The position numbers and the translations under genes are program-made. A stretch of DNA of 47,011 nucleotides from Candidatus Aphodosoma sp. Lineage in GTDB: Bacteria > Bacteroidota > Bacteroidia > Bacteroidales > Paludibacteraceae. Every line of letters starts with the position of its first letter. The first letter of the stretch is position 1. The notes beneath the pieces are model-generated. The model was not told the origin of the DNA, made no database searches, and was given only the letters and a program-made list of their open reading frames with translations. Shown in pieces: positions 11,351 through 47,011 of this stretch. The stretch spans positions 1-47,011 of the forward strand of contig JAZRJN010000043.1 of NCBI GenBank assembly GCA_045645785.1, read 5' to 3'.

Positions 11351-11400
11351 AGTAGCGAGTAGCGAGTAACGAGATTAGGGGCACTCAGCTTCGCCTCGTT
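11351..11400 (+). repeat. GAGTAGC-class heptad array plus partial-complement S module
   Basis: agtagcg agtagcg agtaacg ag, then attaggggcactcagcttcgcctcgtt. Lies 13 nt upstream of the SusD start and fills the susC-susD gap. Confidence 0.9.
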
Positions 11401-14513: not shown

Positions 14514-14554
14514 AATAGCGAGTAGCGAGTAGCAAAACTCAACTCCTCCTTGTT
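14514..14554 (+). repeat. GAGTAGC-class heptad array plus S-like module
   Basis: aatagcg agtagcg agtagca, then aaactcaactcctccttgtt; lies 14 nt upstream of the SusC start codon. Confidence 0.85.
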
Positions 14555-15464: not shown

Positions 15465-15535
15465 AGTAGCGAGTAGCGAGTAACGAGACCCTCCCCCCCC
15501 TTGTTCCTTTTTCCTTGTTCCCTATTCCTTGTGAT
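15465..15535 (+). repeat. Composite element: GAGTAGC heptads + C-tract + TTGTTCC heptads
   Basis: agtagcg agtagcg agtaacg ag | accctcccccccc | ttgttcc tttttcc ttgttcc ctattcc ttgtgat. It fills the whole gap between the kinase stop (TAG at 15522-15524, inside the array) and the murQ start. Confidence 0.9.
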
Positions 15536-27100: not shown

Positions 27101-27147
27101 AATGCATAGTTACTATAGATTCTATAGACTCTATAAATTCTATAGAT
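27098..27147 (+). repeat. CATAATG heptads followed by a 9-nt array TCTATAGAY x4
   Basis: cataatg catagtt | actatagat tctatagac tctataaat tctatagat. The first unit contains the polyprenyl synthase start codon. Confidence 0.9.
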
Positions 27148-27159
27148 TTTGTATATATT

Positions 27160-29196
27160 CTACTTTAAAAGTTCTTCGAGTTGGAGCATTTCGTCGCGCC
27201 ACTGTGCAGCTTCGATGAAATCGAGCTTTTTCGCCGCTTCTTCCATACGATGACGAGCATTTTTGATTGATTTTTCTATGTCTGATTTACTCATATACTG
27301 CACCACAGGATCGGCAGCGATAGTTGGCGTTGAAAATTCTGTCGGATTTGTCAGACGTGTCGGACTTGTCGGACGAGAAACAGCCTCTCCCTCTCCTTTG
27401 ATTGGAAGAGGAGATACCGTTGTGCGAGAGGCAACTGCCTGAGGTGTTATATTGTTATCTGCATTATATTTCAATTGTTTTTCACGACGGCGAGCGGTCT
27501 CTTCTATAGTCAAACGCATCGATTCTGTAATTGTATCGGCATACATAATTGCCTTACCATTAAGATGTCGAGCTGCACGCCCAACAGTCTGAGTAAGTGA
27601 ACGATGCGAACGAAGAAAACCCTCTTTATCAGCATCGAGAATAGCCACTAACGACACCTGTGGCAAATCCAATCCTTCACGCAAAAGATTGACCCCAATG
27701 AGCACATCAAACATACCTGCACGCAATTCATCAAGAATACGAACGCGCTCAAGTGTATCAATATCAGAGTGTATATAGTTACAACGCACACCATTGCGCT
27801 CAAGATAGAGATTAAGTTCCTCAGCCATGCGCTTAGTCAAAGTCGTAACCAACACACGCTCATCCTTCTCAACTCGTAGAACAATCTCTTCCATCAAATC
27901 ATCTACCTGATTGAGTGTAGGACGCACTTCAATTATTGGGTCAAGCAAACCTGTAGGACGAATGACTTGCTCTACAATAACACCTTCCGACTTTTCCAAC
28001 TCATAATCGGCAGGTGTTGCACTAACATAGATAGCTCGCTTGATAAGTTGTTCAAACTCCTCAAATTTCAAAGGTCGGTTATCCAATGCCGCTTCAAGAC
28101 GGAAGCCATACTGCACCAAATTCTTTTTACGCGATGCATCACCGCCATACATAGCACGAATTTGTGGTACCGTAACGTGACTCTCATCAATAATCAACAA
28201 GAAGTCATCTGGAAAATAGTCTAACAAGCAGAATGGGCGTGAACCAGGAGGTCGATTATCGAAATAGCGACTATAATTCTCTACTCCAGAGCAATACCCT
28301 ACCTCTTTTATCATTTCAAGGTCGTAATTCACACGTTCCTCCAAGCGTTTTGCCTCGTATGGTTGTCCACGCTCGATAAAAGCTTGCACCTCACGACCAA
28401 GGTCAAGAGCTATTTGGTCGATAGCAGCATTGACACGCTCTTTAGTTGTAGTGAAGATATTGGCAGGATATATTTTAAACTCATCAAAGCGTTGGAGAGT
28501 ATGATTATTTACAAGGTCTAATGTTTCAATAACGTCGATTTCATCGTCCCAAAAGACTACCCGCACAATATAATCGGTATATGAAAGACAGATGTCAATA
28601 GTCTCGCCTTTTACACGAAAATTGCCACGATTGAGTTCTATATCATTACGAATGTATTGAGCATTGACAAGTTGATGCATTAAATCCTGACGAGAATAAC
28701 GCTGCCCAGCCTTCAATGTAATACAGTTCTGCGTAAAATCATCGGGGTTACCAATACCATAAAGGCAAGAAACTGACGAAACAATCACAACATCGTTGCG
28801 CCCAGAGAGTAATGCAGCAGTAGCAGATAAGCGTAAACGGTCGATTTCATCGTTAATTGCGAGGTCTTTTTCGATATATGTATCAGTGTGCGGAATATAG
28901 GCTTCTGGCTGATAATAGTCATAGTAAGAGACAAAATATTCCACTGCATTTTCAGGAAAAAAGGCTTTGAATTCGCTGAAAAGTTGAGCTGCAAGAGTTT
29001 TATTGTGTGAAAGAATAAGCGTAGGACGTCCAATATTGGCAATTACGTTTGCCATAGTGAATGTCTTGCCCGAGCCCGTAACACCAAGCAAGGTTTGAAA
29101 AGGCACACCACGACGGATACCCTCAGTCAATTCTTGGATTGCCTGAGGTTGATCACCTGTTGGAGCATAGCTTGATGTTAGTTTAAATGAATTCAT
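27160..29196 (-). CDS. uvrB: Excinuclease ABC subunit B
   Basis: 678-aa ORF with Walker A GVTGSGKTFTMANVI, helicase motifs, and a C-terminal UVR domain (...DFIEAAQWRDEMLQLEELLK). Confidence 0.95.
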   Translation of the reverse strand: MNSFKLTSSYAPTGDQPQAIQELTEGIRRGVPFQTLLGVTGSGKTFTMANVIANIGRPTLILSHNKTLAAQLFSEFKAFFPENAVEYFVSYYDYYQPEAYIPHTDTYIEKDLAINDEIDRLRLSATAALLSGRNDVVIVSSVSCLYGIGNPDDFTQNCITLKAGQRYSRQDLMHQLVNAQYIRNDIELNRGNFRVKGETIDICLSYTDYIVRVVFWDDEIDVIETLDLVNNHTLQRFDEFKIYPANIFTTTKERVNAAIDQIALDLGREVQAFIERGQPYEAKRLEERVNYDLEMIKEVGYCSGVENYSRYFDNRPPGSRPFCLLDYFPDDFLLIIDESHVTVPQIRAMYGGDASRKKNLVQYGFRLEAALDNRPLKFEEFEQLIKRAIYVSATPADYELEKSEGVIVEQVIRPTGLLDPIIEVRPTLNQVDDLMEEIVLRVEKDERVLVTTLTKRMAEELNLYLERNGVRCNYIHSDIDTLERVRILDELRAGMFDVLIGVNLLREGLDLPQVSLVAILDADKEGFLRSHRSLTQTVGRAARHLNGKAIMYADTITESMRLTIEETARRREKQLKYNADNNITPQAVASRTTVSPLPIKGEGEAVSRPTSPTRLTNPTEFSTPTIAADPVVQYMSKSDIEKSIKNARHRMEEAAKKLDFIEAAQWRDEMLQLEELLK
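27341..27376 (+). repeat. 9-nt array GTCGGAYTT-like x4 inside uvrB
   Basis: gtcggattt gtcagacgt gtcggactt gtcggacga; encodes SRPTSPTRLTNPT in the linker before the UVR domain. Confidence 0.9.
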
Positions 29197-29244
29197 AATT
29201 CATAATGCATAATTCATAATTAGCCATTCGGCACTGTAATAATT
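29194..29244 (+). repeat. CATAATK heptad array x4 plus P module (AGCCATTCGGCACTGTAATAATT)
   Basis: cataatt cataatg cataatt cataatt | agccattcggcactgtaataatt. The first unit is the uvrB start codon (cat at 29194-29196). Confidence 0.9.
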
Positions 29245-32121: not shown

Positions 32122-32172
32122 AGTAGCGAGTAGCAAGTAATGAGTAGCGAGATTTACTCGCTTTGCTCGTTA
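32122..32172 (+). repeat. GAGTAGC-class heptad array x4 plus S module
   Basis: agtagcg agtagca agtaatg agtagcg ag | atttactcgctttgctcgtta. AGCGAG (32146-32151) pairs with CTCGCT (32157-32162). Fills the rpoN-PAP2 gap, 5 nt from the PAP2 start. Confidence 0.9.
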
Positions 32173-34321: not shown

Positions 34322-34365
34322 AGTAGCGAGTAGCGAGTAACAAGACTCACTCGCTTCGCTCGTTT
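34322..34365 (+). repeat. GAGTAGC-class heptad array plus S module
   Basis: agtagcg agtagcg agtaaca ag | actcactcgcttcgctcgtt. GCGAGT pairs with ACTCGC. Fills the SPOR-folE gap, 14 nt from the folE start. Confidence 0.9.
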
Positions 34366-34951: not shown

Positions 34952-36682
34952 TTATATATTATTAATTTTTGAATAATATTTCATAAAACCAACACCCATT
35001 ATATTTTTAATATCCTCATCACAATAACCTCGACGGATAAGTTCCATTGTAATATTTATCAACTCGCTCGAGTCATTACATCCTAATACTCCACCGCCAC
35101 CGTCAAAATCAGAACCTATACCAATGTATTCACTTCCAACCAATTTTACCATATAATCAATATGGTCACAAATTGTATTTATATCCGCTCGGCCATCTTT
35201 AGCGAGAAAATAATTATACAAACAAACATGTATTCGACCGCCGCTCTTTGCCAATTTTACAATCAAATCATCACTCATATTACGAGGATGATCACACAAA
35301 GCCTTGGCTGAAGTATGAGTTGCTATAATAGGTTGTGTACTAAACTCTATTGCTTGTTCTATAGTCGAATCTGCCGCATGCGATACATCCACCATCATAC
35401 CCAAACGATTCATTTCACGAATCACCTCACGTCCAAAATCCGACAATCCACCATGTGTATTGCTGCCTCGTGCCGAATCACACAAATCATTATCGCCATT
35501 ATGACAGAGTGTAATATAACGTACACCCATATCATAAAATTTCTCCACATTACGAATATCGCCAGCGAGGGCAAAGCCATTCTCAAGTCCAAAACAAACA
35601 TTAACCATTTGTGGCTTAATCCCAGAAAGTTGAGTATTAAACCTTACCTTTTCAGGATATTTATCCACCTGCTCACGCAAACGCGTAAATATTTCAACCG
35701 CCACATTATGTGCCTCTTCTGCTTTTTGATTATAATCAGGCGAATCAAGTGGCACTTGTGGCAAATAAGCAACCATAAACGTACACGCCACATCGCCATC
35801 ATTCATCTTCACAAAGTCAACCTTCACTTCATCTGGATTTTGACGCACACCAAGATCAGTTGCCTCAGTCCACACCATTGGTGTATCTGTATGAGTATCA
35901 ACCACTGACGATGTACGATGAATAGCACGAGCACGACGATATACCGAAGCCTCATCCACCAACCAATTAAACAAAGCAGCCTCCTCTGGATGCTCTTTAT
36001 ACAAATTTTCAGGATGCCATTGCACGCCTATCATCTTATAACCTGGAACTTCAATAGCCTCTACAATACTATCAGGAGCAAAACCTACTGCTCTACACGA
36101 TGGAGCAATATTCCTTAGCGACTGATGATGAAACGTATTCACTTCAACAATCTGTCTACCCATCACCTGCGCAATCAACGACCCTGGTGCCAATTCCACC
36201 GCATGAGCCACCTCACTACGAGGCTGATCTCCTTGAGAATGATTCAAAAGTTGTGAGTTTTCAGTCTCGTATCTCATGTCTCGTGTCTTACCCTCTATTT
36301 GGGTATAAATATCTTGATATATATCACCTCCAAACTCAATATTCATAGCCTGCATACCACGACAAATACCCAACATAGGCATACAACGCATACGCGTTAA
36401 ACGTACCAACGCCAAGTCAAACTCATCCCTCAACGCACATGGCTTACCGCTTTGAGGCATCAATTCCTCTCCCCAATATTTTGGGTCAATATCACCACCA
36501 CCAGTCAACAACACACCATCGACCATATCAAGCAAATTATTCAAAATCTGCTCATTATCAGTCACTGGAAATACTACTGGCGTAGCACCTGCATCAATAA
36601 TACACTGCACATACGCAGGCACCAATCTATGCGCCTCTTCCCACCATCCCGAAGAAATACCTATTTTTAATTCATAATTCAT
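34952..36682 (-). CDS. Fusion protein: class I glutamine amidotransferase-like peptidase C26 (gamma-glutamyl hydrolase family) + membrane dipeptidase M19
   Basis: 576-aa ORF. The N-terminal half has MLGICRGMQAMN (C26 nucleophile elbow). The C-terminal half has VVDTHTDTP..., LCHNGDNDL and GIGSDFDG, typical of M19 dipeptidases. Its stop is 1 nt from the SPOR start. Confidence 0.85.
   Translation of the reverse strand: MNYELKIGISSGWWEEAHRLVPAYVQCIIDAGATPVVFPVTDNEQILNNLLDMVDGVLLTGGGDIDPKYWGEELMPQSGKPCALRDEFDLALVRLTRMRCMPMLGICRGMQAMNIEFGGDIYQDIYTQIEGKTRDMRYETENSQLLNHSQGDQPRSEVAHAVELAPGSLIAQVMGRQIVEVNTFHHQSLRNIAPSCRAVGFAPDSIVEAIEVPGYKMIGVQWHPENLYKEHPEEAALFNWLVDEASVYRRARAIHRTSSVVDTHTDTPMVWTEATDLGVRQNPDEVKVDFVKMNDGDVACTFMVAYLPQVPLDSPDYNQKAEEAHNVAVEIFTRLREQVDKYPEKVRFNTQLSGIKPQMVNVCFGLENGFALAGDIRNVEKFYDMGVRYITLCHNGDNDLCDSARGSNTHGGLSDFGREVIREMNRLGMMVDVSHAADSTIEQAIEFSTQPIIATHTSAKALCDHPRNMSDDLIVKLAKSGGRIHVCLYNYFLAKDGRADINTICDHIDYMVKLVGSEYIGIGSDFDGGGGVLGCNDSSELINITMELIRRGYCDEDIKNIMGVGFMKYYSKINNI
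36264..36291 (+). repeat. Heptad array GTCTCGT-class x4 inside the C26-M19 gene
   Basis: gtctcgt atctcat gtctcgt gtcttac; encodes GKTRDMRYET. Its unit is the reverse complement of the GACACGA class at 6631-6654, so it is an opposite-orientation copy of that class. Confidence 0.8.
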
Positions 36683-36737
36683 AATGCATAATTCATAATT
36701 AAAAAATCCTTACTCACTGCACCCTATTCTTTGTTCC
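36671..36737 (+). repeat. Composite: CATAATK heptads x4 + S-like module + TTGTTCC heptads
   Basis: ttcataa ttcataa tgcataa ttcataa tt | aaaaaatccttactcactgcaccc | tattct ttgttcc. It contains the C26-M19 start codon (36680-36682) and abuts the ABC permease stop (36738). Confidence 0.9.
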
Positions 36738-38084
<1,347 letters not shown>

Positions 38085-39596: not shown

Positions 39597-39631
39597 AATG
39601 GTTAGAGGTTAATGGTTAGAGATTAGAGTAG
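39597..39631 (+). repeat. Period-7 array AATGGTT AGAGGTT AATGGTT AGAGATT AGAGTAG
   Basis: Read directly. It spans the cls-ribD gap and the last 7 codons plus the stop of ribD (TLISNH-stop). Confidence 0.85.
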
Positions 39632-40646
39632 GAGCTTTAACACCTTTTGCATCTGGATTAACTCCAAGTTTCACAGAATTCGGTCCTTTCTCAATACGTG
39701 CCTCATCCCACAAACCAGAATCAATCACTGTCTGCAACCACTTAGCTCCCCCCTCAATTATTATTGATAAAATGTTTCGTTTCGCCAATTCTTTCAAAAT
39801 AGTCTCCACAATCTTATCATCAAAATCAATCCCCACATACTCAACATTCTCTCGCATCAACCGTTGATTGTTGACTGTTGATTGTTGACTATAAAACACT
39901 ATAGTTTTCGCCGCCGAATCAAAAATCCTATAATCCGCCGGCACACGCAAAGTCCTATCCAACAACACACGTACAGGATTTTTACCAGCCCATTTAGTTA
40001 CAGTCAAATGAGGGTCATCAAGCAAAGCCGTATTCGTAGCCACCATAATAGCATCCTCCTCCACACGCACTTGATGATTCAAAGTCTTTGTAACAGAGTT
40101 GCTTATCCTTATAGGACCATTACCCTTTTCCGTACGACACACATCAATTATACCATCCTCAGTTTCAGCCCATTTCAATATCACATACGGACGATGCTTC
40201 TCTTGCACCGCCATAAACCTACGATTAAGCCAACGAGCCTCCTCTTCCAACACACCCACAGTTACCTCAATACCAGCATCTTGAAGAATTTTCACGCCAC
40301 GACCAGCCACCTTCGGATTAGGGTCAAGCGTAGCAATCACCACTCGTTTCAACCCCTTACGCACAATCAAATCAGCACAAGGCGGAGTTTTTCCCCAATG
40401 CGAACAAGGCTCAAGCGACACATACATCGTAGCCTCTTTCAATAGCGATTCATCTCTAACAGAAGTAATTGCATTAGGCTCAGCATGTGGCTCTCCTGCA
40501 CGATGATGATACCCTTCTCCTATAATCTTACCATCATACACAATCACAGCCCCCACCATAGGATTAGGCGACGTTTGCCCCTCAGCCATAGCAGCCAACT
40601 GCAAACACCGCATCATATACAATTCATCTTGCTTTTTATCCATCAT
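39609..40646 (-). CDS. ribD: Bifunctional diaminohydroxyphosphoribosylaminopyrimidine deaminase / 5-amino-6-(5-phosphoribosylamino)uracil reductase
   Basis: 345-aa ORF with CDA zinc motifs HAEPNAI and EPCSHWGKTPPC, plus a C-terminal RibD reductase domain. Confidence 0.95.
   Translation of the reverse strand: MMDKKQDELYMMRCLQLAAMAEGQTSPNPMVGAVIVYDGKIIGEGYHHRAGEPHAEPNAITSVRDESLLKEATMYVSLEPCSHWGKTPPCADLIVRKGLKRVVIATLDPNPKVAGRGVKILQDAGIEVTVGVLEEEARWLNRRFMAVQEKHRPYVILKWAETEDGIIDVCRTEKGNGPIRISNSVTKTLNHQVRVEEDAIMVATNTALLDDPHLTVTKWAGKNPVRVLLDRTLRVPADYRIFDSAAKTIVFYSQQSTVNNQRLMRENVEYVGIDFDDKIVETILKELAKRNILSIIIEGGAKWLQTVIDSGLWDEARIEKGPNSVKLGVNPDAKGVKAPTLISNH
39863..39893 (+). repeat. Heptad array GTTGATT/GTTGACT x4 inside ribD
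   Basis: gttgatt gttgact gttgatt gttgact ata; encodes YSQQSTVNNQR in the reductase domain. Same class as the TTGACTR array at 14594-14642. Confidence 0.9.
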
Positions 40647-40734: not shown

Positions 40735-40914
40735 TTACTCTGGTTTGAGGATTTTGTTAATGTCGGCTTCGACTTTGGTGAGTTGTTTGCGGCAATCAGC
40801 TATAAGTTTTGTAGCAGTTTTTACGTTTGCTGCCAATTGGTCTATAGAGAGTTGACCGCTTTCGATTTCAGAGACTATTTGCTCTAATTGTTTGAGTTGT
40901 TCGTTGTAAGACAT
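40735..40914 (-). CDS. xseB: Exodeoxyribonuclease VII small subunit
   Basis: Below the 60-aa cut-off of the ORF track. My translation gives 59 aa: MSYNEQLKQLEQIVSEIESGQLSIDQLAANVKTATKLIADCRKQLTKVEADINKILKPE. This shows the typical XseB coiled coil, and the gene sits directly downstream of xseA. Confidence 0.85.
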   Translation of the reverse strand: MSYNEQLKQLEQIVSEIESGQLSIDQLAANVKTATKLIADCRKQLTKVEADINKILKPE

Positions 40915-40949
40915 AATTAAGAATTAAGAGTTGAGAATTGAAAACTAAA
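40915..40949 (+). repeat. Heptad array AATTAAG AATTAAG AGTTGAG AATTGAA AACTAAA
   Basis: It starts at the base next to the xseB start codon and fills most of the xseA-xseB gap. Confidence 0.85.
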
Positions 40950-40991
40950 TGTTCTAGTCACCCTATAAAAACTAGATATTTTGGAAATTTT

Positions 40992-42431
40992 TCATTTAAC
41001 TATACTATCAATGGTGCCATCAGCAAGGGTGGTAGTGATGATTTCGCCGGGTTGGAGTTGGGTAATGGAGGTTATGAGTTTGCCTTTATGAGTGGTGTAG
41101 GAGTAGCCTTTCTTGAGTAGTTGTTGCGGGTCAAGAAGTTGAAGTTTGGTTTCAAGCAGTGTTAGACGAGATTGTTGTGATTGCAAAAGGCTATTTACAG
41201 CAACAGCAAGCTGAGTGTTTTTTTGGTCGAGATATGTGCGATTTTTTACGATTAAATCGGCTGTTTTTAGTTGTAACCGATGTTGTAAGTCGGTAAGATG
41301 ATTTGCGGAGTGAGTAAGCGTGCGTTGAACAGATTGTGGTAATCGAGTAGAAAGTAACAATAAATAATTTTTCTCTTGCTCTATACGATGAATGACTGAA
41401 TTTTGCATTTTTTCTGCCATTTCATCGAGAAAATTCAATACTTCAAGTGATGACGATATAATAAATTCAGCCACTGCAGTTGGTGTTTTAAGAGCTGTAT
41501 GCGCCACCATATCGAGAATAGTTTCATCGCGATGATGACCTATACCTGCGATTATTGGCAAAGGGAAATTAGCACAACACTCGGCGAGGCGTTCACTATC
41601 GAAGGCTTGAAGGTCGGAAGTTGCTCCGCCACCACGAATAATAACAACAAGTTGAAAGTTGAAAGTTGAAAGTTGAAAGTTATTAACCCCCTCCGCTCTG
41701 CGAGCTCGTCCTCCTAAGACAGAGGGAGAATTTTTTATACCTCCCACAGAAATATTTTTGCTCACGGAACCCACAGAACACACGGAAGTTAATTTCTCGC
41801 TTTGCTCGAAATTTCTTTTAATAATATCAAGGGCAGAGAGGATGCTTTCTTCGGTTTGGGTGCCTTGCATTACGGCAGGGAAAAAAGTTACGGAATATTG
41901 AAAACCGTAAGGATTATTGTTGAGTTGGTGAAGAAAATCGGTATAACCTGCGGCTGTAGGACTTGAAATAACTGCTATACGCTGAATTGGTCGAGGGAGA
42001 GGCAATTGGCTATTTTTACCGATTAAACCGCGCTTTTTTAATCGCTCAATTATCTCAAGACGACGACGTTGAAGTTCGCCAAGAGTATAAGTTGGATCGA
42101 TATCTCTAACATTAAGACTAAGTCCATAAAGTTCATGAAACTCAACCGACACTTCGACAAGAATTTTCATCCCCACTTGGAAAGTAGAATTAGTAGCCGA
42201 TTGAAACTTTTGAAGCAAAAATCGATAAGTTGATGCCCAGATTGTTGCTCGCTGTTTGGCAATGATTTGGTCAGAATCGGGATGTTTCTCTATCAAATCT
42301 AAATAGCAATGACCTGAGTAGTTAGTCGAAATACTATTAATTTCAGCACGTACCCATAACGTTGTGGGAATCACCATGTGAAGTGATTCCTTGATTGTTT
42401 GATTTAGTCGATAGAGAGATAGAGAGTTCAT
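40992..42431 (-). CDS. xseA: Exodeoxyribonuclease VII large subunit (carries a repeat-derived insertion of about 50 aa)
   Basis: The track ORF starts at a GTG (42557) with a non-homologous-looking extension. The ATG at 42431 gives MNSLSLYRLNQTIKESL..., the usual XseA start (OB fold). Catalytic-domain motif IIRGGGATSDLQAFD and a long C-terminal coiled coil are present. Confidence 0.9.
   Translation of the reverse strand: MNSLSLYRLNQTIKESLHMVIPTTLWVRAEINSISTNYSGHCYLDLIEKHPDSDQIIAKQRATIWASTYRFLLQKFQSATNSTFQVGMKILVEVSVEFHELYGLSLNVRDIDPTYTLGELQRRRLEIIERLKKRGLIGKNSQLPLPRPIQRIAVISSPTAAGYTDFLHQLNNNPYGFQYSVTFFPAVMQGTQTEESILSALDIIKRNFEQSEKLTSVCSVGSVSKNISVGGIKNSPSVLGGRARRAEGVNNFQLSTFNFQLVVIIRGGGATSDLQAFDSERLAECCANFPLPIIAGIGHHRDETILDMVAHTALKTPTAVAEFIISSSLEVLNFLDEMAEKMQNSVIHRIEQEKNYLLLLSTRLPQSVQRTLTHSANHLTDLQHRLQLKTADLIVKNRTYLDQKNTQLAVAVNSLLQSQQSRLTLLETKLQLLDPQQLLKKGYSYTTHKGKLITSITQLQPGEIITTTLADGTIDSIVK
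41650..41808 (+). repeat. 159-nt mosaic element inside xseA: AGTTGAA x4 + C-tract + hairpin + CACGGAA-like units + S-like module
   Basis: agttgaa x4 agttatt | aaccccctcc | gctctgcgagctcgtcctcctaagacagagggag | ...ctcacggaacccacagaacacacggaag | ttaatttctcgctttgctcg. Every module recurs in intergenic copies elsewhere in the window. Confidence 0.9.
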
Positions 42432-42712
42432 TTTTTCTACGTTACTTTTGTCATTGCGCAAAAGTAACCAAAACGCTAGTGCTGTGCTTAAAAATGCTAA
42501 AGGATAGCAATAAATCCTATAGCGATTAAAACTCGGACAAACAAACTGCTTCTTCACAATTCAATACTTGCCCATAAATCTCATGCCTCGTTCATCGCCA
42601 ATATAACCTCGCCAAAAATCGCTACTTAACGGATTTATTACTACCCTTTTAATCGCATTTTTAAGACAAGGCACGATTACCATTCGGCATTATCCTTATT
42701 GTTATAAAAAAT

Positions 42713-43858
42713 TTATAATAGTATTGCACCGCCGAGGACGTCGGTATAGTTGTCGCCACAATAGAAAACTACGCTTTGTCCAGGGGTGATGGATTCGATG
42801 TCGTTTTCAAAGACAATTCTTACCAATGAGGAATGAGGAATGAGGAATGAGGAATTATCACCCCCCTCCACATTCGCTTGCGGACGCTTGAGCCGGGCGT
42901 CCCTACTTGGAAATTCGGATGCATCGACATGATAGAGGTGGGCAAGACCGGGACAGGATTTGTAGCGGACTTTTGCCATCACGGTTTGTCCGTCGATGAA
43001 ATCGGAGAATTTCATCATATTTAGGTCGTAAGCATAGCAAGTTTTTATGAGCAAATCCTCCTTACGACCGAGTACAACTTGATTCTTTTGAGCATCGATA
43101 CGAACAACATACATTGGTTCGCCAAGTGCAATGCCAAGACCTTTACGCTGACCTATAGTGTAGTTTGGGAAACCTTGATGTTTGCCCAAAACCTTACCAT
43201 TTATATCGATAAAATCGCCTTTTTTGTACTTTTTATCATAGTCAGGCACATTGGCACGAAGGAAATTGCGATAATCGTTGTCAGGGATAAAACAAATCTC
43301 TTGACTTTCGCCTTTCTTAGATAATTGTTCATAACCATTATCAAGCGCGATTTGGCGCACTTCAGTTTTAGTATATCCACCAAGAGGGAAAAGTGTACGA
43401 GAAAGATTCTCTTGAGTCAAACGCCAGAGGAAATAGGATTGATCCTTGTGCTCGTCGGCTCCTTTACGAATGAAATATCGACCTTCTGGTGTCTTCTCGA
43501 TTTGAGCATAATGACCTGTTGCAATATAAAAACAGCCCAATTCATCGGCAAATTTCTGCAACATACCCCACTTAATATTAGAATTGCACTGCACACAAGG
43601 ATTAGGCGTGCGACCATGAAGATATTCGTCGATGAAATTGCAGATAACAGAATCATGAAACTCACGACGCATATCGAGAGTGTGATGCTCAAAACCCATA
43701 TCTGCAGCCATCTGACGAGCATCAGATACAGCAGGAGAATCGAGAGTTAACTGAGTGAAAGTTACACCTTTAAGTTCGTAACCTTTGCGACGGAGTTCGA
43801 TGGCAGCAACGGAACTATCGATGCCACCACTCATAGCCATAAGTATTTTATTTTTCAT
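42713..43858 (-). CDS. mnmA: tRNA 2-thiouridine(34) synthase (carries a repeat-derived insertion of about 30 aa)
   Basis: 381-aa ORF with PP-loop AMSGGIDSSVAA, conserved CVQCN, and C-terminal ...ITPGQSVVFY. Confidence 0.95.
   Translation of the reverse strand: MKNKILMAMSGGIDSSVAAIELRRKGYELKGVTFTQLTLDSPAVSDARQMAADMGFEHHTLDMRREFHDSVICNFIDEYLHGRTPNPCVQCNSNIKWGMLQKFADELGCFYIATGHYAQIEKTPEGRYFIRKGADEHKDQSYFLWRLTQENLSRTLFPLGGYTKTEVRQIALDNGYEQLSKKGESQEICFIPDNDYRNFLRANVPDYDKKYKKGDFIDINGKVLGKHQGFPNYTIGQRKGLGIALGEPMYVVRIDAQKNQVVLGRKEDLLIKTCYAYDLNMMKFSDFIDGQTVMAKVRYKSCPGLAHLYHVDASEFPSRDARLKRPQANVEGGDNSSFLIPHSSLVRIVFENDIESITPGQSVVFYCGDNYTDVLGGAILL
42825..42912 (+). repeat. 88-nt mosaic element inside mnmA: AATGAGG x4 + C-tract + GC hairpin
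   Basis: aatgagg x4 aattatc | acccccctcc | acattcgctt GCGGACGC ttgagccgg GCGTCC ctacttgg; encodes PSRDARLKRPQANVEGGDNSSFLIPHSS. Confidence 0.9.
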
Positions 43859-43872
43859 ATATTTAGATTGTT

Positions 43873-43955
43873 AGTAGTGAGTAACAAGTAGCAAAATTAC
43901 CATTCGGAATTGTAATTTTTCTCACGGATATTCTGAAACACTTCGCTTTACAGAA
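43873..43955 (+). repeat. Mosaic element in the mnmA leader: GAGTAGC-class heptads + P module + CACGGA/S-like modules
   Basis: agtagtg agtaaca agtagca | ttaccattcggaattgtaattttt | ctcacggatattctgaaacacttcgctttacag; starts 15 nt upstream of the mnmA ATG. Confidence 0.85.
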
Positions 43956-43998
43956 AAGTCCAGAGAAAAAATAAATTTCGTTTGACTAGTATAGAATG

Positions 43999-44006
43999 CA
44001 AAGATA
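43999..44006 (-). promoter_or_regulatory. Candidate -7 box (TATCTTTG) for mnmA
   Basis: Plus caaagata equals minus TATCTTTG. No convincing -33 TTTG at the right spacing. It would give a leader of about 135 nt containing the mosaic element. Confidence 0.35.
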
Positions 44007-44100
44007 ATAAAATTTTGGGAAATAATTTAAAAATCATATTTTTTTGTACGATACAGTAACTTATTATTATTTTTATGTATAGAGTTTGACTTTTTTTTAT

Positions 44101-44108
44101 TATCTTTG
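44101..44108 (+). promoter_or_regulatory. Candidate -7 box (TATCTTTG) for dcp
   Basis: TATCTTTG lies 103 nt upstream of the dcp ATG. The nearest upstream TTTG (44085-44088) is only 12 nt away, so the -33 element is unconvincing. Confidence 0.35.
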
Positions 44109-44210
44109 CAAATTGTTAAATGCGTGCACACGCGAACCTTATAATGGGAAAATTTAAGCACCAAACAAACAAGCCTTAAATCACTAATACTTAAATACTT
44201 ATTACAAACA

Positions 44211-46310
44211 ATGAAAAAATTATTTTTAACAGTAGCAACAGCAGCTATGATGTTTGCATGTACAAACAATGCGGGTAAAAATCCGTTTTTGACAGAATGG
44301 AACACTCCAGAAGGTGTACCTCCATTTGAACAAATCAAAGCAGAGCACTATTTGCCTGCATTTGAAGAGGGTATCAAACAACAACAAGCCGAAATTGAGG
44401 CAATTATCAACAATCCAGAGGCTCCAACATTCGAGAATACTCTTGAGGCAATGGATAAATCTGGTCGTTTGTTGTCGAAAGTGGCTTTGGTATTCTTCAA
44501 TATCACAGAAAGCGATGGTTCTGAAGAATTAACTAAAGTTCAAGAAGTTGTATTGCCATTGGTAAGCGCACATAGCGACAATATCTACATGGACGCACGT
44601 TTGTTTGAACGCGTGAAAGCTGTGTATGAAGGTCGTGACGCAATGAACTACACAGTAGAACAAAATCGTTTGTTAGACAAAGTTTACAATGCATTCGTTC
44701 GCAACGGTATCTCATTGCCAGAAGATAAACAAGCACGTATGCGTGAAATCAATGCTGAACTTTCGACATTGCAACAAAAATTCGGCAACAATTTGTTGGC
44801 AGAAACAAATGCTTTCAAACTTGTGCTTGAATCGGAAGAAGATTTAGCAGGTTTGCCTGAAGCAGTGCGCACAGCAGCAGCTGAAGCAGCAAAAGCTGAA
44901 GGTTTGGAAGGTAAATGGGTGATTGGTTTGCAAAATCCAAGCCGTATTCCTTTCTTGCAATACAGCGAACGCCGCGACTTGCGCGAAAAAGTTTACAAAG
45001 CATACATCGAACGTGGTAACAACGGCAACGAAAACGACAACAAAGAAATCGTGTTGCAAATCATGAAATTGCGTATCGAGAAAGCTAACTTGCTCGGTTT
45101 TGAAACATCGGCAGACTTTATCCTCGACGATACAATGGCTAAAAAATCAGACGTTGTGAACTCATTCTTGCTTGATATCTTCAAAGCTGCTAATGAAAAA
45201 GCAAAAGCAGAATTGGCTGAAATGCAAGCAATTGCAGACCGCGAAGGTAACGGTGTGAAAGTAGAAGCTTGGGACTGGGATTACTACACTGAAAAAGTAC
45301 GTCAAGAAAAATATGCTATGAGCGAAGACGAAATCAAACCATACTTCCAAATGGAAAACGTTCGCGCAGGTATGTTTGCATTGGCTAACCGCCTCTATGG
45401 TTTGAACTTCGAAAAATTGAACGATATGCCATTGTTCAACCCAGAAGCAGAATGCTTTAAAGTGACAGACAAAGATGGCTCTTTGATTGGTATTTTCTAT
45501 ACAGACTACTACCCACGCGCATCAAAACGCGGTGGTGCATGGATGACAAACTTCCGTGAACAATATATCAACGAAGAAGGTAAAGACGTTCGTCCAGTGG
45601 TTATCAATATTGGTAACTTCACAAAACCAACAGCTACTACTCCATCATTGCTCACATTGGATGAAACAGAGACTATGTTCCACGAATTCGGTCACGGCTT
45701 GCACGGTTTGTTGGCAAAAGCTAACTATGTATCTGTAAGCGGTACTAACGTGGCACGCGACTTCGTTGAGTTGCCATCACAAATCATGGAAAACTGGGCA
45801 TTCGAACCAGAAGTGCTTGCAATGTATGCAAAACACTATCAAACAGGCGAATTGATTCCTAATGAAATCATCGAAAAAATTAATGCTTCATCTACATTCA
45901 ATCAAGGATTTATGACTACAGAATTGACTGCAGCAGCTATCCTTGACATGAACTGGCACGACCTCAAATCGATAGAAGGCATCACTGACCCTATCGCATT
46001 TGAAAAAGAGATGATGGACAAAATTGGCTTGATTCCTGAAATCGCTCCTCGTTATCGTACAACTTACTTCAACCACATTTGGGCAGGCGGTTATAGCGCT
46101 GGTTATTATAGCTATTTGTGGGCAGAAGTGTTGGATAAAGATGCTTACGCATTGTTCAAAGAAAAAGGTATCTTCGATCAAGAAACAGCACAAAAATTCC
46201 GCACATTGCTCGAAAAAGGTGGTACTGAAGACCCTATGAAATTGTATCGCGACTTCCGTGGTGCAGAGCCAAATCCAGAGGCTATGCTCATTGGACGCGG
46301 TTTAAAATAG
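44211..46310 (+). CDS. dcp: Peptidyl-dipeptidase Dcp (M3 family zinc metallopeptidase), secreted/lipoprotein
   Basis: 699-aa ORF with signal/lipobox MKKLFLTVATAAMMFAC, zinc motif HEFGHGLH, and M3 family length and architecture. Confidence 0.9.
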   Translation: MKKLFLTVATAAMMFACTNNAGKNPFLTEWNTPEGVPPFEQIKAEHYLPAFEEGIKQQQAEIEAIINNPEAPTFENTLEAMDKSGRLLSKVALVFFNITESDGSEELTKVQEVVLPLVSAHSDNIYMDARLFERVKAVYEGRDAMNYTVEQNRLLDKVYNAFVRNGISLPEDKQARMREINAELSTLQQKFGNNLLAETNAFKLVLESEEDLAGLPEAVRTAAAEAAKAEGLEGKWVIGLQNPSRIPFLQYSERRDLREKVYKAYIERGNNGNENDNKEIVLQIMKLRIEKANLLGFETSADFILDDTMAKKSDVVNSFLLDIFKAANEKAKAELAEMQAIADREGNGVKVEAWDWDYYTEKVRQEKYAMSEDEIKPYFQMENVRAGMFALANRLYGLNFEKLNDMPLFNPEAECFKVTDKDGSLIGIFYTDYYPRASKRGGAWMTNFREQYINEEGKDVRPVVINIGNFTKPTATTPSLLTLDETETMFHEFGHGLHGLLAKANYVSVSGTNVARDFVELPSQIMENWAFEPEVLAMYAKHYQTGELIPNEIIEKINASSTFNQGFMTTELTAAAILDMNWHDLKSIEGITDPIAFEKEMMDKIGLIPEIAPRYRTTYFNHIWAGGYSAGYYSYLWAEVLDKDAYALFKEKGIFDQETAQKFRTLLEKGGTEDPMKLYRDFRGAEPNPEAMLIGRGLK

Positions 46311-46576
46311 TAGCGAGTAGCAAGATAAGAGTAACAAGACTTTACTCGCTCCGCTCGTTTTAGATTTTGATATGCGGACTTGAGTGCTCCGCATATCAAC
46401 AAAATTTTGAAAGTTGAGAGGTTAAAGTACCATTTGGCATTATAAATTCGCACACGGAATACACGGAACTCACGGAAATTTTCACCTCCCATAAACATAA
46501 ATAATACTAATATTTTCCACCTTTCGATTCGCTCTTTTGCTATCGCAAAAATCGCTCTACGGATAACACGGAAGCC
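46309..46576 (+). repeat. 268-nt intergenic region composed almost entirely of concatenated repeat modules
   Basis: The modules in order are: GAGTAGC-class heptads (46309-46338, starting inside the dcp stop codon); S module tttactcgctccgctcgtttt; a 12-bp hairpin; ttgaaag ttgagag gttaaag; P module taccatttggcattataaatt; acacggaat acacggaac tcacggaaa; ttttcacctccc; and acacggaag just before the next ATG. Confidence 0.9.
46367..46399 (+). terminator. Strong stem-loop downstream of dcp (probable terminator)
   Basis: Perfect 12-bp stem TTGATATGCGGA-cttgagtgc-TCCGCATATCAA. Only a weak T-run (caaaatttt) follows. Confidence 0.55.
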
Positions 46577-47011
46577 ATGAGACCTGCACGAATAAATATC
46601 ACAAAATTTTTCACACAACCAAATGTGGCAAATATTGCTATCAGTGTGGTTGTAAGTGGATTGTTGTGGTTTTTGTTCAATGCTCAAACAGAAAATGACT
46701 ATGTTCAAATGTTGTTTATGAAGCATTTTGTGCTATGGTCATTGCCAATAATATGGTCAAGAATATTAGGATTTATAGCGATTGTGGGGTTGATGACATG
46801 GATGATGTTTTTGTGTAACAATTTGCAAATCATACCTGTGCGCTCATCAATGCCATTAACTGTCGGCATTGTAATGGCAGGATGCATTGGCTATATTCAA
46901 CCATTCGACGAAAGTTATATAGCAGCTGTGTTTTTTATCTTGGCATTGAAAGAATTGATACAGATGTATAACTTTGAAACACAGGTAGCTGCATCATTTA
47001 ATATCACATTA
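46577..47011 (+). CDS. Hypothetical multi-pass membrane protein, 5' partial (runs off window end)
   Basis: Not in the ORF track (no stop in the window). From ATG 46577 it is open for 145 codons: MRPARINITKFFTQPNVANIAISVVVSGLLWFLF...ILGFIAIVGLMTWMMFL...LTVGIVMAGCIGY...AAVFFILAL, with several hydrophobic helices. Confidence 0.55.
   Translation, partial: MRPARINITKFFTQPNVANIAISVVVSGLLWFLFNAQTENDYVQMLFMKHFVLWSLPIIWSRILGFIAIVGLMTWMMFLCNNLQIIPVRSSMPLTVGIVMAGCIGYIQPFDESYIAAVFFILALKELIQMYNFETQVAASFNITL

Follow-up and report, generated by a model that had tools for sequence, protein, structure and literature searches.

How does a conserved tRNA-modifying enzyme come to carry microsatellite and hairpin DNA inside its own reading frame? 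The question is raised by the mnmA gene (42713–43858, minus strand), which encodes a 381-residue tRNA 2-thiouridine(34) synthase on a 47,011-nucleotide stretch of Candidatus Aphodosoma sp. (contig JAZRJN010000043.1 of assembly GCA_045645785.1; the whole stretch is referred to hereafter as the window), and which holds a block of foreign repeat DNA near its 3′ end (42824–42922, minus strand). We consider it probable that this block is tolerated selfish or slippage-prone repeat DNA, compound and non-autonomous, with modules resembling repetitive extragenic palindromic (REP) sequences placed in a heptad microsatellite within a permissive loop of the protein. The open reading frame (ORF) contains the HUP, PRC-barrel and C-terminal barrel domains of Pfam, its product matches the MnmA structures of E. 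coli, S. pneumoniae and others (Protein Data Bank chains) at ~1e-56 in phmmer, and it is intact, with catalytic and conserved motifs all present and a tail that reads ...HVDASEFPSRDARLKRPQANVEGGDNSSFLIPHSSLVRIVFENDIESITPGQSVVFY. This exact protein was not found in the searched protein collection, and no contig conspecific with the window was found; the nearest relatives, located by scanning one genome per species, are metagenome-assembled genomes (MAGs) of Candidatus Aphodosoma (Paludibacteraceae, Bacteroidales) at 76–91% average nucleotide identity (ANI) to the window, the best match standing at 91%.

The boundaries of the block are set by the series of mnmA alleles in these relatives (designated by L numbers, as are other loci used for comparison). 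In the insert-free allele of L007 (HEDDGRVRIVFEN, giving ...YHEDDGRVRIVFEN in an MnmA of 351 residues) the site is a three-codon turn, DGR; in the window 99 nt or 33 codons (ASEFPSRDARLKRPQANVEGGDNSSFLIPHSSL) replace these 9 nt and lengthen the gene by a net 90 nt (30 codons). The original prediction, made from the window alone, had described an 88-nt in-frame mosaic element in the conserved C-terminal tail of MnmA, of which the mosaic, its frame and its location stand, whereas the size does not. Read along the coding strand, the block comprises GCATCCGAATTTCCAA, GTAG, GGACGC-ccggctcaa-GCGTCC, GCAAGCGAATGTGGAGGGGGGTGATAA and (TTCCTCA)x4, followed by TTG. The first 16 nt (GCATCCGAATTTCCAA, 42907–42922, minus) form a left remnant that matches the conserved left edge (GAATCCGAATTGCAAAC...) of heptad-only alleles, as judged by comparison of L085 and L086 with L081, L083 and the window. 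There follows a 52-nt unit that we term module A (GTAG tag, hairpin and tail GCAAGCGAATGTGGAGGGGGGTGATAA; 42855–42906, minus), which reappears in the mnmA genes of L001 and L002 and the xseA genes of L209 and L214. Within it, a GTAG-tagged REP-like hairpin (42882–42906, minus) is made up of the tag at 42903–42906 and a 6-bp stem with a 9-nt loop at 42882–42902 (GGACGC-ttgagccgg-GCGTCC on the plus strand), and the module ends in a G-tract junction (GGAGGGGGGTGATAA, 42855–42869, minus) that corresponds to the C-tract of the plus strand (CCCCCCTCC at 42861–42869). The heptad microsatellite (TTCCTCA)x4 (42827–42854, minus) completes the block; on the plus strand Tandem Repeats Finder describes it as AATGAGG x4.4 at 42825–42855 with 100% matches. 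The four heptads, C-tract and GC hairpin that had been predicted are hence all present in the sequence, and the GTAG tag is an addition to that description. The 14-mer double unit AATGAGGAATGAGG (plus strand) has 5 matches at ≤1 mismatch against 0.01 expected, while GC-rich hairpins of such size number 16 in the window against about 7 in shuffles, and the hairpin alone is therefore weak evidence. As RNA, the whole insert folds at −31.3 kcal/mol (z = −0.43), no more stable than shuffles; pairing of the G-tract with CCUC of the heptads is possible, but the fold is not significant. An Rfam gathering scan of the whole window gave no family match, and a promoter and terminator scan of 40800–47011 gave counts equal to shuffles, with nothing at the insert.

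Comparison among MnmA proteins informs on the origin of the block. Outside the Aphodosoma clade, the proteins (≤64% identity, 346–401 residues, most of them 350–367) all have the short turn without an insert, as does L007, which argues that the insert is derived and restricted to Candidatus Aphodosoma; the alignment of MnmA orthologs that had been proposed as a check thus places an insert at this site only in that clade. Within the genus the site is highly varied, with about 45 protein variants (clusters and contigs together) whose spacers measure 6, 21, 23, 30, 36, 37, 39, 45 and 52 residues and include 7-residue (21-nt) steps; besides L007, alleles lacking the insert share 90% clusters with insert-bearing ones (P0123, P0124, P0130, P0134, P0156). 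At the DNA level, alleles consist of no insert (L007); of heptads only (L086 with ACTCTCA x5, L085 with TCTCAAT x4); of heptads with one GTAG hairpin and a linker (L081, L083, L087, L005); of two hairpins (L004, L006); of arrays of the 9-mer TCCGACAGG with heptads (L003, L008, L212); or of the window type (window, L001, L002). L001 and L212, of hairpin type and 9-mer type respectively, differ in this way at about 96% ANI, so turnover at the site is recent; the hairpin stem of the L001 allele is decayed. Between L209 and L212 (97.9% ANI), nearly all indels fall in repeats of the heptad/module system.

Despite this diversity of sequence, all 14 of the 14 in-frame DNA alleles are 3n in length and stop-free in the frame used, with stops in most of the other frames. 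This argues for translation and against removal at the RNA or protein level, and constitutes strong indirect evidence that the segment is translated within MnmA; an intron, an intein or translational bypass is ruled out by the strict 3n lengths and open frame, and the length of the segment moreover falls well below that of any intein or group I/II intron. An AlphaFold2 model of the window MnmA (72 homologues as input) reaches a mean predicted local distance difference test (pLDDT) score of 88.2, and Foldseek aligns it with MnmA–tRNA co-crystal structures and S. pneumoniae TrmU at template modeling (TM) scores of 0.78–0.86. Residues 326–342 have pLDDT <50 and lie between strands 304–311 and 345–355, and the remaining fold is intact. 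The insert (spanned, for example, by the peptide PQANVEGGDNSSFLIPHSSLVR) is therefore modeled as an excursion from a β-hairpin turn of the C-terminal barrel, a predicted disordered loop; the original prediction had asked for a structural model of this domain with the insert. The C-terminal domain of MnmA helps to hold the tRNA. In the E. coli enzyme it comprises residues 278–368 (PMC5372745).

A second housekeeping gene of the window, xseA, carries a compound insert (41649–41822, minus) related to the mnmA block, made up of heptads (AACTTTC x4.7, 41649–41681), a G-tract junction (41680–41696), a decayed C5/G5 hairpin (41709–41729) and 9-mers (41761–41787). In blastn-short searches, module A (GTAG to TGATAA) recurs at 83–85% identity in xseA of L209 and L214, directly 5′ of the heptad array, as well as in mnmA of L001 and L002, and each occurrence abuts a heptad array. 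Module B (ATATTGTCCCCCTGTTTTAGGGGGACGAG...CGGAGGGGGTTGATAA) is present in xseA of L003, L004 and L210, in decayed form in xseA of the window, and in the mnmA gene of L211. Module C (TTTTATCGCCAAAGGCTCAAAGACCGA), which L211 likewise has in mnmA, sits within the xseA array in L002, L085, L209 and L214. Since modules A, B and C are common to both genes, the mnmA and xseA inserts are related and, judged by sequence, built from one shared module set; the original prediction had proposed this kinship, which the recurrence of the 52-nt module in xseA of L209 and L214 and the sharing of modules B and C uphold. The G-tract junction (GGAGGGGG(G)T.ATAA, then heptads) is itself a recurrent seam, preceding the heptads in xseA of the window, in the ABC-2 transporter gene of L001 and L212, and in xseA of L003–L006. 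A heptad-only form of the xseA insert is found in L006, L007, L008 and L083. The xseA array replaces native residues immediately before the conserved VVIIRGGG strand. The listed xseA ORF (40992–42557) begins at an upstream GTG, and orthologues begin MNSLSLY/MTSLSLY, which makes 42431 the likely start. In a BLAST search of the insert against phages and plasmids, module A found no source there and the heptads alone matched (Bacteroides finegoldii carA, a Geminocystis plasmid and one faecal phage contig).

The hairpin of module A likewise has relatives elsewhere. Copies of the form GTAGGGACACTCGGCTCGAGTGTCCG lie between genes in L004, L005, L007, L208, L210, L211 and L105, and L007 has four direct tandem copies with a 44-nt period downstream of xseB. 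The stem of the window (6 bp, perfect, with the 9-nt loop) and the 7–10-bp stems of its relatives are short GC-rich palindromes of the kind that defines REPs; between them a compensatory change converts GC...GC to AC...GT, and the GTAG tag is kept in all related copies except that of L002 (ATAG). On these features the hairpin fits the GTAG REP superfamily. Among the metagenome matches listed, GTAGGGACRC...GYGTCCG hairpins occur on contigs of 38–68% GC, often as inverted doublets, and the hairpin type is therefore very widespread. Full membership of the REPIN class (REP doublets forming hairpins) is not established for the block: the mnmA copy is single, those of L007 are direct tandems, and inverted doublets were seen only in the unrelated metagenome contigs. 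The 47-kb window holds one copy of the hairpin, and there is no transposase among the ten window ORFs scanned; a REP-associated tyrosine transposase (RAYT) gene flanked by GTAGGGAC hairpins, if it exists, would support mobility of the REP type.

The heptads are part of a much larger population. The window holds 14 perfect arrays of period 7 against 0.07 in shuffles, and none of periods 8–12; across nine Aphodosoma loci the density of period-7 arrays is 31.5 per 100 kb, about 30x the 0.9 per 100 kb of other Bacteroidota loci (765 kb). Only 24 canonical units, dominated by CCTCATT and CAACTTT, are used in the 66 arrays of 129 kb. These arrays lie 13–16 nt upstream of starts (AGTAGCG), across starts (ATGAATT), in signal peptides and inside xseA, ribD and the ABC-2 gene. 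Arrays of AGTAGCG (coding strand CGCTACT) stand at 11351–11373, 14516–14533, 15465–15487, 34322–34339 and 32122–32151, 13–16 nt upstream of four starts and 4 nt upstream of a fifth. The unit repertoire is not exclusive to Aphodosoma, since arrays of the TTCYTCA family occur in carA of a cultured Bacteroides finegoldii (L215, NZ_OY725930.1 31021–31053) and at the end of a glutathione S-transferase (GST) gene on a plasmid of the cyanobacterium Geminocystis (L216, NZ_AP014828.1 10489–10521).

The account that we favor, in which the block is tolerated repeat DNA, can be set out as follows. The block sits in the β-hairpin turn of the MnmA C-terminal barrel, where its roughly 33 residues would be translated into a disordered loop. 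Heptad arrays would serve a few short modules as landing sites, with different arrays occupied in different genomes, and these modules would move either through single-strand transposition of the REP type (RAYT-like) or because arrays with units in common undergo ectopic gene conversion; the latter would explain why modules are always in or beside arrays. Replication slippage would alter the number of units and selection on MnmA would keep only those variants that are 3n long and stop-free, such that three-unit steps survive and single-unit changes give rise to truncated alleles. The comparisons themselves establish the block's anatomy, its frame and loop position, its confinement to the clade, the extreme variability of the site, the modules common to different genes and the variants in unit number; we infer the lack of a function proper to the insert, the route of module movement and slippage as the source of unit changes. 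Several points weigh against this account. The mobility mechanism is conjecture, and translation through the insert is read from conservation of the frame. Truncating three-unit alleles in two assemblies (described below) could mean that the locus is used as a switch. The presence of the same few units at unrelated loci and across phyla hints at a templated process or a function, and the xseA array (AACTTTC x4.7) is 100% identical in four species although its 150-nt flanks differ by 14–27%, which sits poorly with simple neutrality. The identical xseA array and the recurring units therefore keep alive two rivals, one in which mnmA is a contingency locus and one in which the arrays are themselves functional.

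Seven-base repeats drive phase variation in the HMW adhesin genes of Haemophilus, and the mnmA array likewise has a unit that is not a multiple of three within an ORF. Slippage of (TTCCTCA)n could turn MnmA on with four units and off with three or five, giving subpopulations without 2-thiouridine at position 34 (s2U34) that might, for example, escape anticodon nucleases or phage; we regard such switching as unlikely. L208 (NCBI GCA_045660485.1) and L209 (ENA ERZ27297695) have three units and an MnmA truncated at 352 residues, ending ...IPHW*, while the last 37 mnmA codons persist out of frame, still intact. The ANI of L209 is 97.9% to the four-unit L212 (ENA ERZ27297529) and about 97% to L213 and L214, and that of L208 is about 94.7% to L209 and L212, so that the change may be recurrent; the contrast of three units (L208, L209) with four (L212–214) hence falls at 94.6–97.9% ANI, between consensus assemblies none of which is of the window's species. 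In L210 a change from G4 to G5 shifts the frame within the insert's linker, and in the ABC-2 transporter gene (36738–38084, with two intragenic arrays at 37168–37206 and 37775–37813) the second array has three AATTCTC units in L209 against four in the window, which splits the ORF (L209:11822–13059) into 112 and 342 residues. At this second ABC-2 site, L001 and L212 instead carry GGGGGTGAT followed by TCAACTY units. Slippage alleles thus seem to occur in nature, and the insert seems to make mnmA frameshift-prone.

The pattern across genomes nevertheless speaks against routine switching. Four units are invariant in the window, L001, L003, L008, L081 and L212–214, and L002 has four with one substitution, making nine genomes of several species; no five-unit TTCCTCA allele was seen in mnmA of the genomes compared, and no variation in unit number was seen within the window's own species. 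In-frame alleles have a TTCCTCA count of 1 (L087) or 4 (L081), and the same step is repeated in the series of proteins whose spacers measure 23, 30 and 37 residues. Whereas contingency genes typically specify surface, host-interaction or restriction–modification products and have 5′ repeats, the array here is found at 88% of the ORF of a housekeeping tRNA thiolase. The three-unit alleles come from consensus assemblies and may reflect assembly error or a decaying pseudogene, and a second mnmA paralogue, as is present in some Bacteroides, could make this copy dispensable. Frameshift switching, which the original prediction had raised, accordingly gains from the truncated alleles of L208 and L209 and loses from the constancy of the array in nine genomes.

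A broader alternative, to which we also give a low probability, is an active heptad system in which a limited set of 7-nt units is written or homogenized at hundreds of sites, some of them within housekeeping genes, by a templated or conversion mechanism, with arrays kept identical across species, docking modules of 30–55 nt and rendering many genes (mnmA and the ABC-2 gene among them) reversibly frameshift-prone; if true, this would amount to a contingency network on the scale of the genome, for which no precedent has been described in Bacteroidales.

Quite doubtful, too, is a function of the heptads (and perhaps the hairpin) at the level of DNA or mRNA, be it binding of a single-stranded nucleic acid-binding protein, a translation pause or mRNA stabilization, with the arrays selected and the protein loop a by-product. 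The constancy of the xseA array amid diverged flanks favors such a role, as do the restriction of 66 arrays to 24 units with two dominant families and the fixed position of AGTAGCG arrays ahead of four starts, a placement that parallels that of TAACTGA heptamers, which have been proposed as sites for post-transcriptional regulators (PMC4679880). The mnmA site itself behaves otherwise: sister genomes differ in unit type (TTCCTCA, CTTTCAA, ACTCTCA, TCTCAAT) and carry anywhere from 1 to 5 units or, in some cases, lack an array altogether, the L001 hairpin is decayed, and Rfam recognizes nothing. That the loop confers a new function on the MnmA protein, for instance by touching the tRNA at a further point or by binding a partner, is very improbable, for although it is always in frame and within the C-terminal domain, its sequence is unrelated between close relatives, absent in some and of low pLDDT, and is dictated by DNA modules that are also present in non-coding DNA. 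An assembly artefact or dead gene, conceivable in a source that is probably a MAG and in repeats prone to misassembly, is scarcely credible given the same insert in the independent assemblies L001 and L002 and an intact ORF with all its catalytic and conserved motifs.

Other elements of the window and its relatives can be described alongside. A hairpin with a 12-bp stem at 46367–46399 (plus), 57 nt downstream of the M3 peptidase (dcp) gene, is not part of the insert and is probably a separate terminator-like or REP-derived element; it is kept in five species (window, L001, L005, L008 and L083), which show a compensatory A:T to G:C change in the stem, and heptads of differing families precede it in different species. 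The original prediction had likened it to the hairpin of the insert, a resemblance that proves weak: only the short strings TGCGGAC and TTGAG are in common and the pairing register differs, and we reject it as a relative in favor of a conserved dcp-downstream element. Behind several AGTAGCG arrays stands a partial copy in inverted orientation (ACTCGCTTCGCTCG), which forms a hairpin (e.g. 32146–32162 and 34332–34355), and the arrays resemble the TAACTGA arrays mentioned above. The ATGAATT arrays at 29190–29221 and 36663–36700 contain the starts of uvrB (27160–29196) and of a C26/M19 peptidase fusion gene (34952–36682); with such an array over the start codon, ATG recurs each 7 nt in all three frames. 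Besides the array at its start, uvrB carries a 9-mer array (TGTCGGACG) in the linker between the UvrB and UVR domains, and further 9-mer arrays (CTATAGATT, CACACGGAA) are intergenic; 9-mer arrays, the uvrB one included, stand at window 27340–27375, 27113–27148 and 46451–46477 and at L007:4590–4630, and relatives have 9-mers of these families within their mnmA and xseA inserts. An AATGCAY array in the ribD C-terminus of L212 encloses a 27-nt module (AACCAACGGTCTTGAGCGGTAGCGAAA) (L212:10149; ribD of the window, 39609–40646) that is absent in L209 and L001 (96–98% ANI to L212). An intergenic motif of 7–10 G followed by TAAAT recurs at window 25982, L004:5898, L005:10384 and 10541, and L007:4840, and comes after TTAACAAAAGTTAA in L004, L005 (10541) and L007. 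L105, a 2.4-kb metagenome contig of 38% GC (JAEIGA010318206.1), has no nucleotide similarity to the window yet contains five heptad arrays and tandem GTAG hairpins beside heptads, so the repeat system extends to further relatives.

Whereas repeat DNA is generally regarded as lying outside genes, those for conserved enzymes of this abundant uncultured gut genus hold a heptamer microsatellite and REP-like modules. The alleles of mnmA offer a natural series for the colonization of a protein loop, from no insert through heptads only and one hairpin to two hairpins or 9-mer arrays, and include concrete candidates for truncation of a housekeeping protein by a 7-nt slip. For annotators and MAG quality tools, it follows that what looks like a frameshift or a split gene in this lineage may reflect genuine polymorphism of repeats. 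If it turns out that cells maintain the arrays actively or use them as switches, they would represent a new mode of genome plasticity in Bacteroidales.

We lastly compared the block with known systems. Rickettsia palindromic elements are in-frame selfish repeats in housekeeping genes, located in tolerated surface loops and present or absent between close relatives. The mnmA block, an in-frame repeat at a structurally tolerant site of a conserved protein, is alike by description; the Rickettsia elements are palindromes of about 100–150 bp without microsatellite tails and, to our knowledge, no report links them to frameshift-prone sites. The small dispersed repeats of Nostoc are reportedly tens of nucleotides long, apparently mobile and often within tandem heptamer arrays. 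We know of no transposase for them and of no tendency to insert into coding regions, and they differ from the Aphodosoma modules in phylum and sequence. E. coli bacterial interspersed mosaic elements (BIMEs) combine REP hairpins with a small motif set in variable combinations, an architecture that the block shares; unlike the block, they are extragenic and without microsatellites, and include motifs that bind integration host factor (IHF) or gyrase. Contingency loci built on simple sequence repeats (SSRs), such as the 7-bp repeats of H. influenzae hmw, have in common with the block a unit that is not a multiple of three and, if the three-unit alleles are real, polymorphism between close strains that alters the product, whereas the block is placed near the 3′ end of a housekeeping tRNA-modification gene.

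Two further classes of short repeats come close to the block. With GTAG REPs (PMC3733652) and the REP/REPIN–RAYT systems (Bertels & Rainey, 2011, PMC3116915) the block shares a short GC hairpin, a 5′ GTAG and, in relatives, intergenic copies that include a tandem cluster. Di Nocera et al (2013, PMC3733652) documented GTAG REPs lying in frame within genes for DNA repair and tRNA functions, and these, like the block, add 20–30 residues to the encoded proteins. In distinction to both, the hairpin of the block is fused to a G-tract tail in a 52-nt module and always joined to a heptad microsatellite, the host belongs to the Bacteroidales, neither a RAYT gene nor an inverted doublet was seen at these loci, and hairpin density is low, with one copy in the 47-kb window. 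Heptanucleotide SSRs, defined by at least three head-to-tail copies (the mnmA array has 4.4 perfect ones), form the other class. Cyanobacteria, Beggiatoaceae, Xanthomonas and a few Bacteroidetes, Paludibacter among them, are known for an excess of heptamers and for arrays upstream of starts (PMC4679880, PMC4692102). The cyanobacterial short tandemly repeated repetitive (STRR) sequences, the G-rich heptamers of Xanthomonas and Nostoc (PMC4692102) and the TAACTGA arrays (PMC4679880) agree with those of Aphodosoma in their period-7 excess, in many arrays lying upstream of starts, in unit types common to distant phyla and in lengths that vary between relatives. They are described as essentially intergenic, whereas Aphodosoma arrays are often inside ORFs (mnmA, xseA, ribD, ABC-2, signal peptides) with nested modules; in the window, the mnmA array and at least five others lie within ORFs. 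We found no paper on repeats of Aphodosoma, and the block is best described as a combination of known kinds, the intragenic REP and the heptamer SSR, in a lineage where none had been described before.

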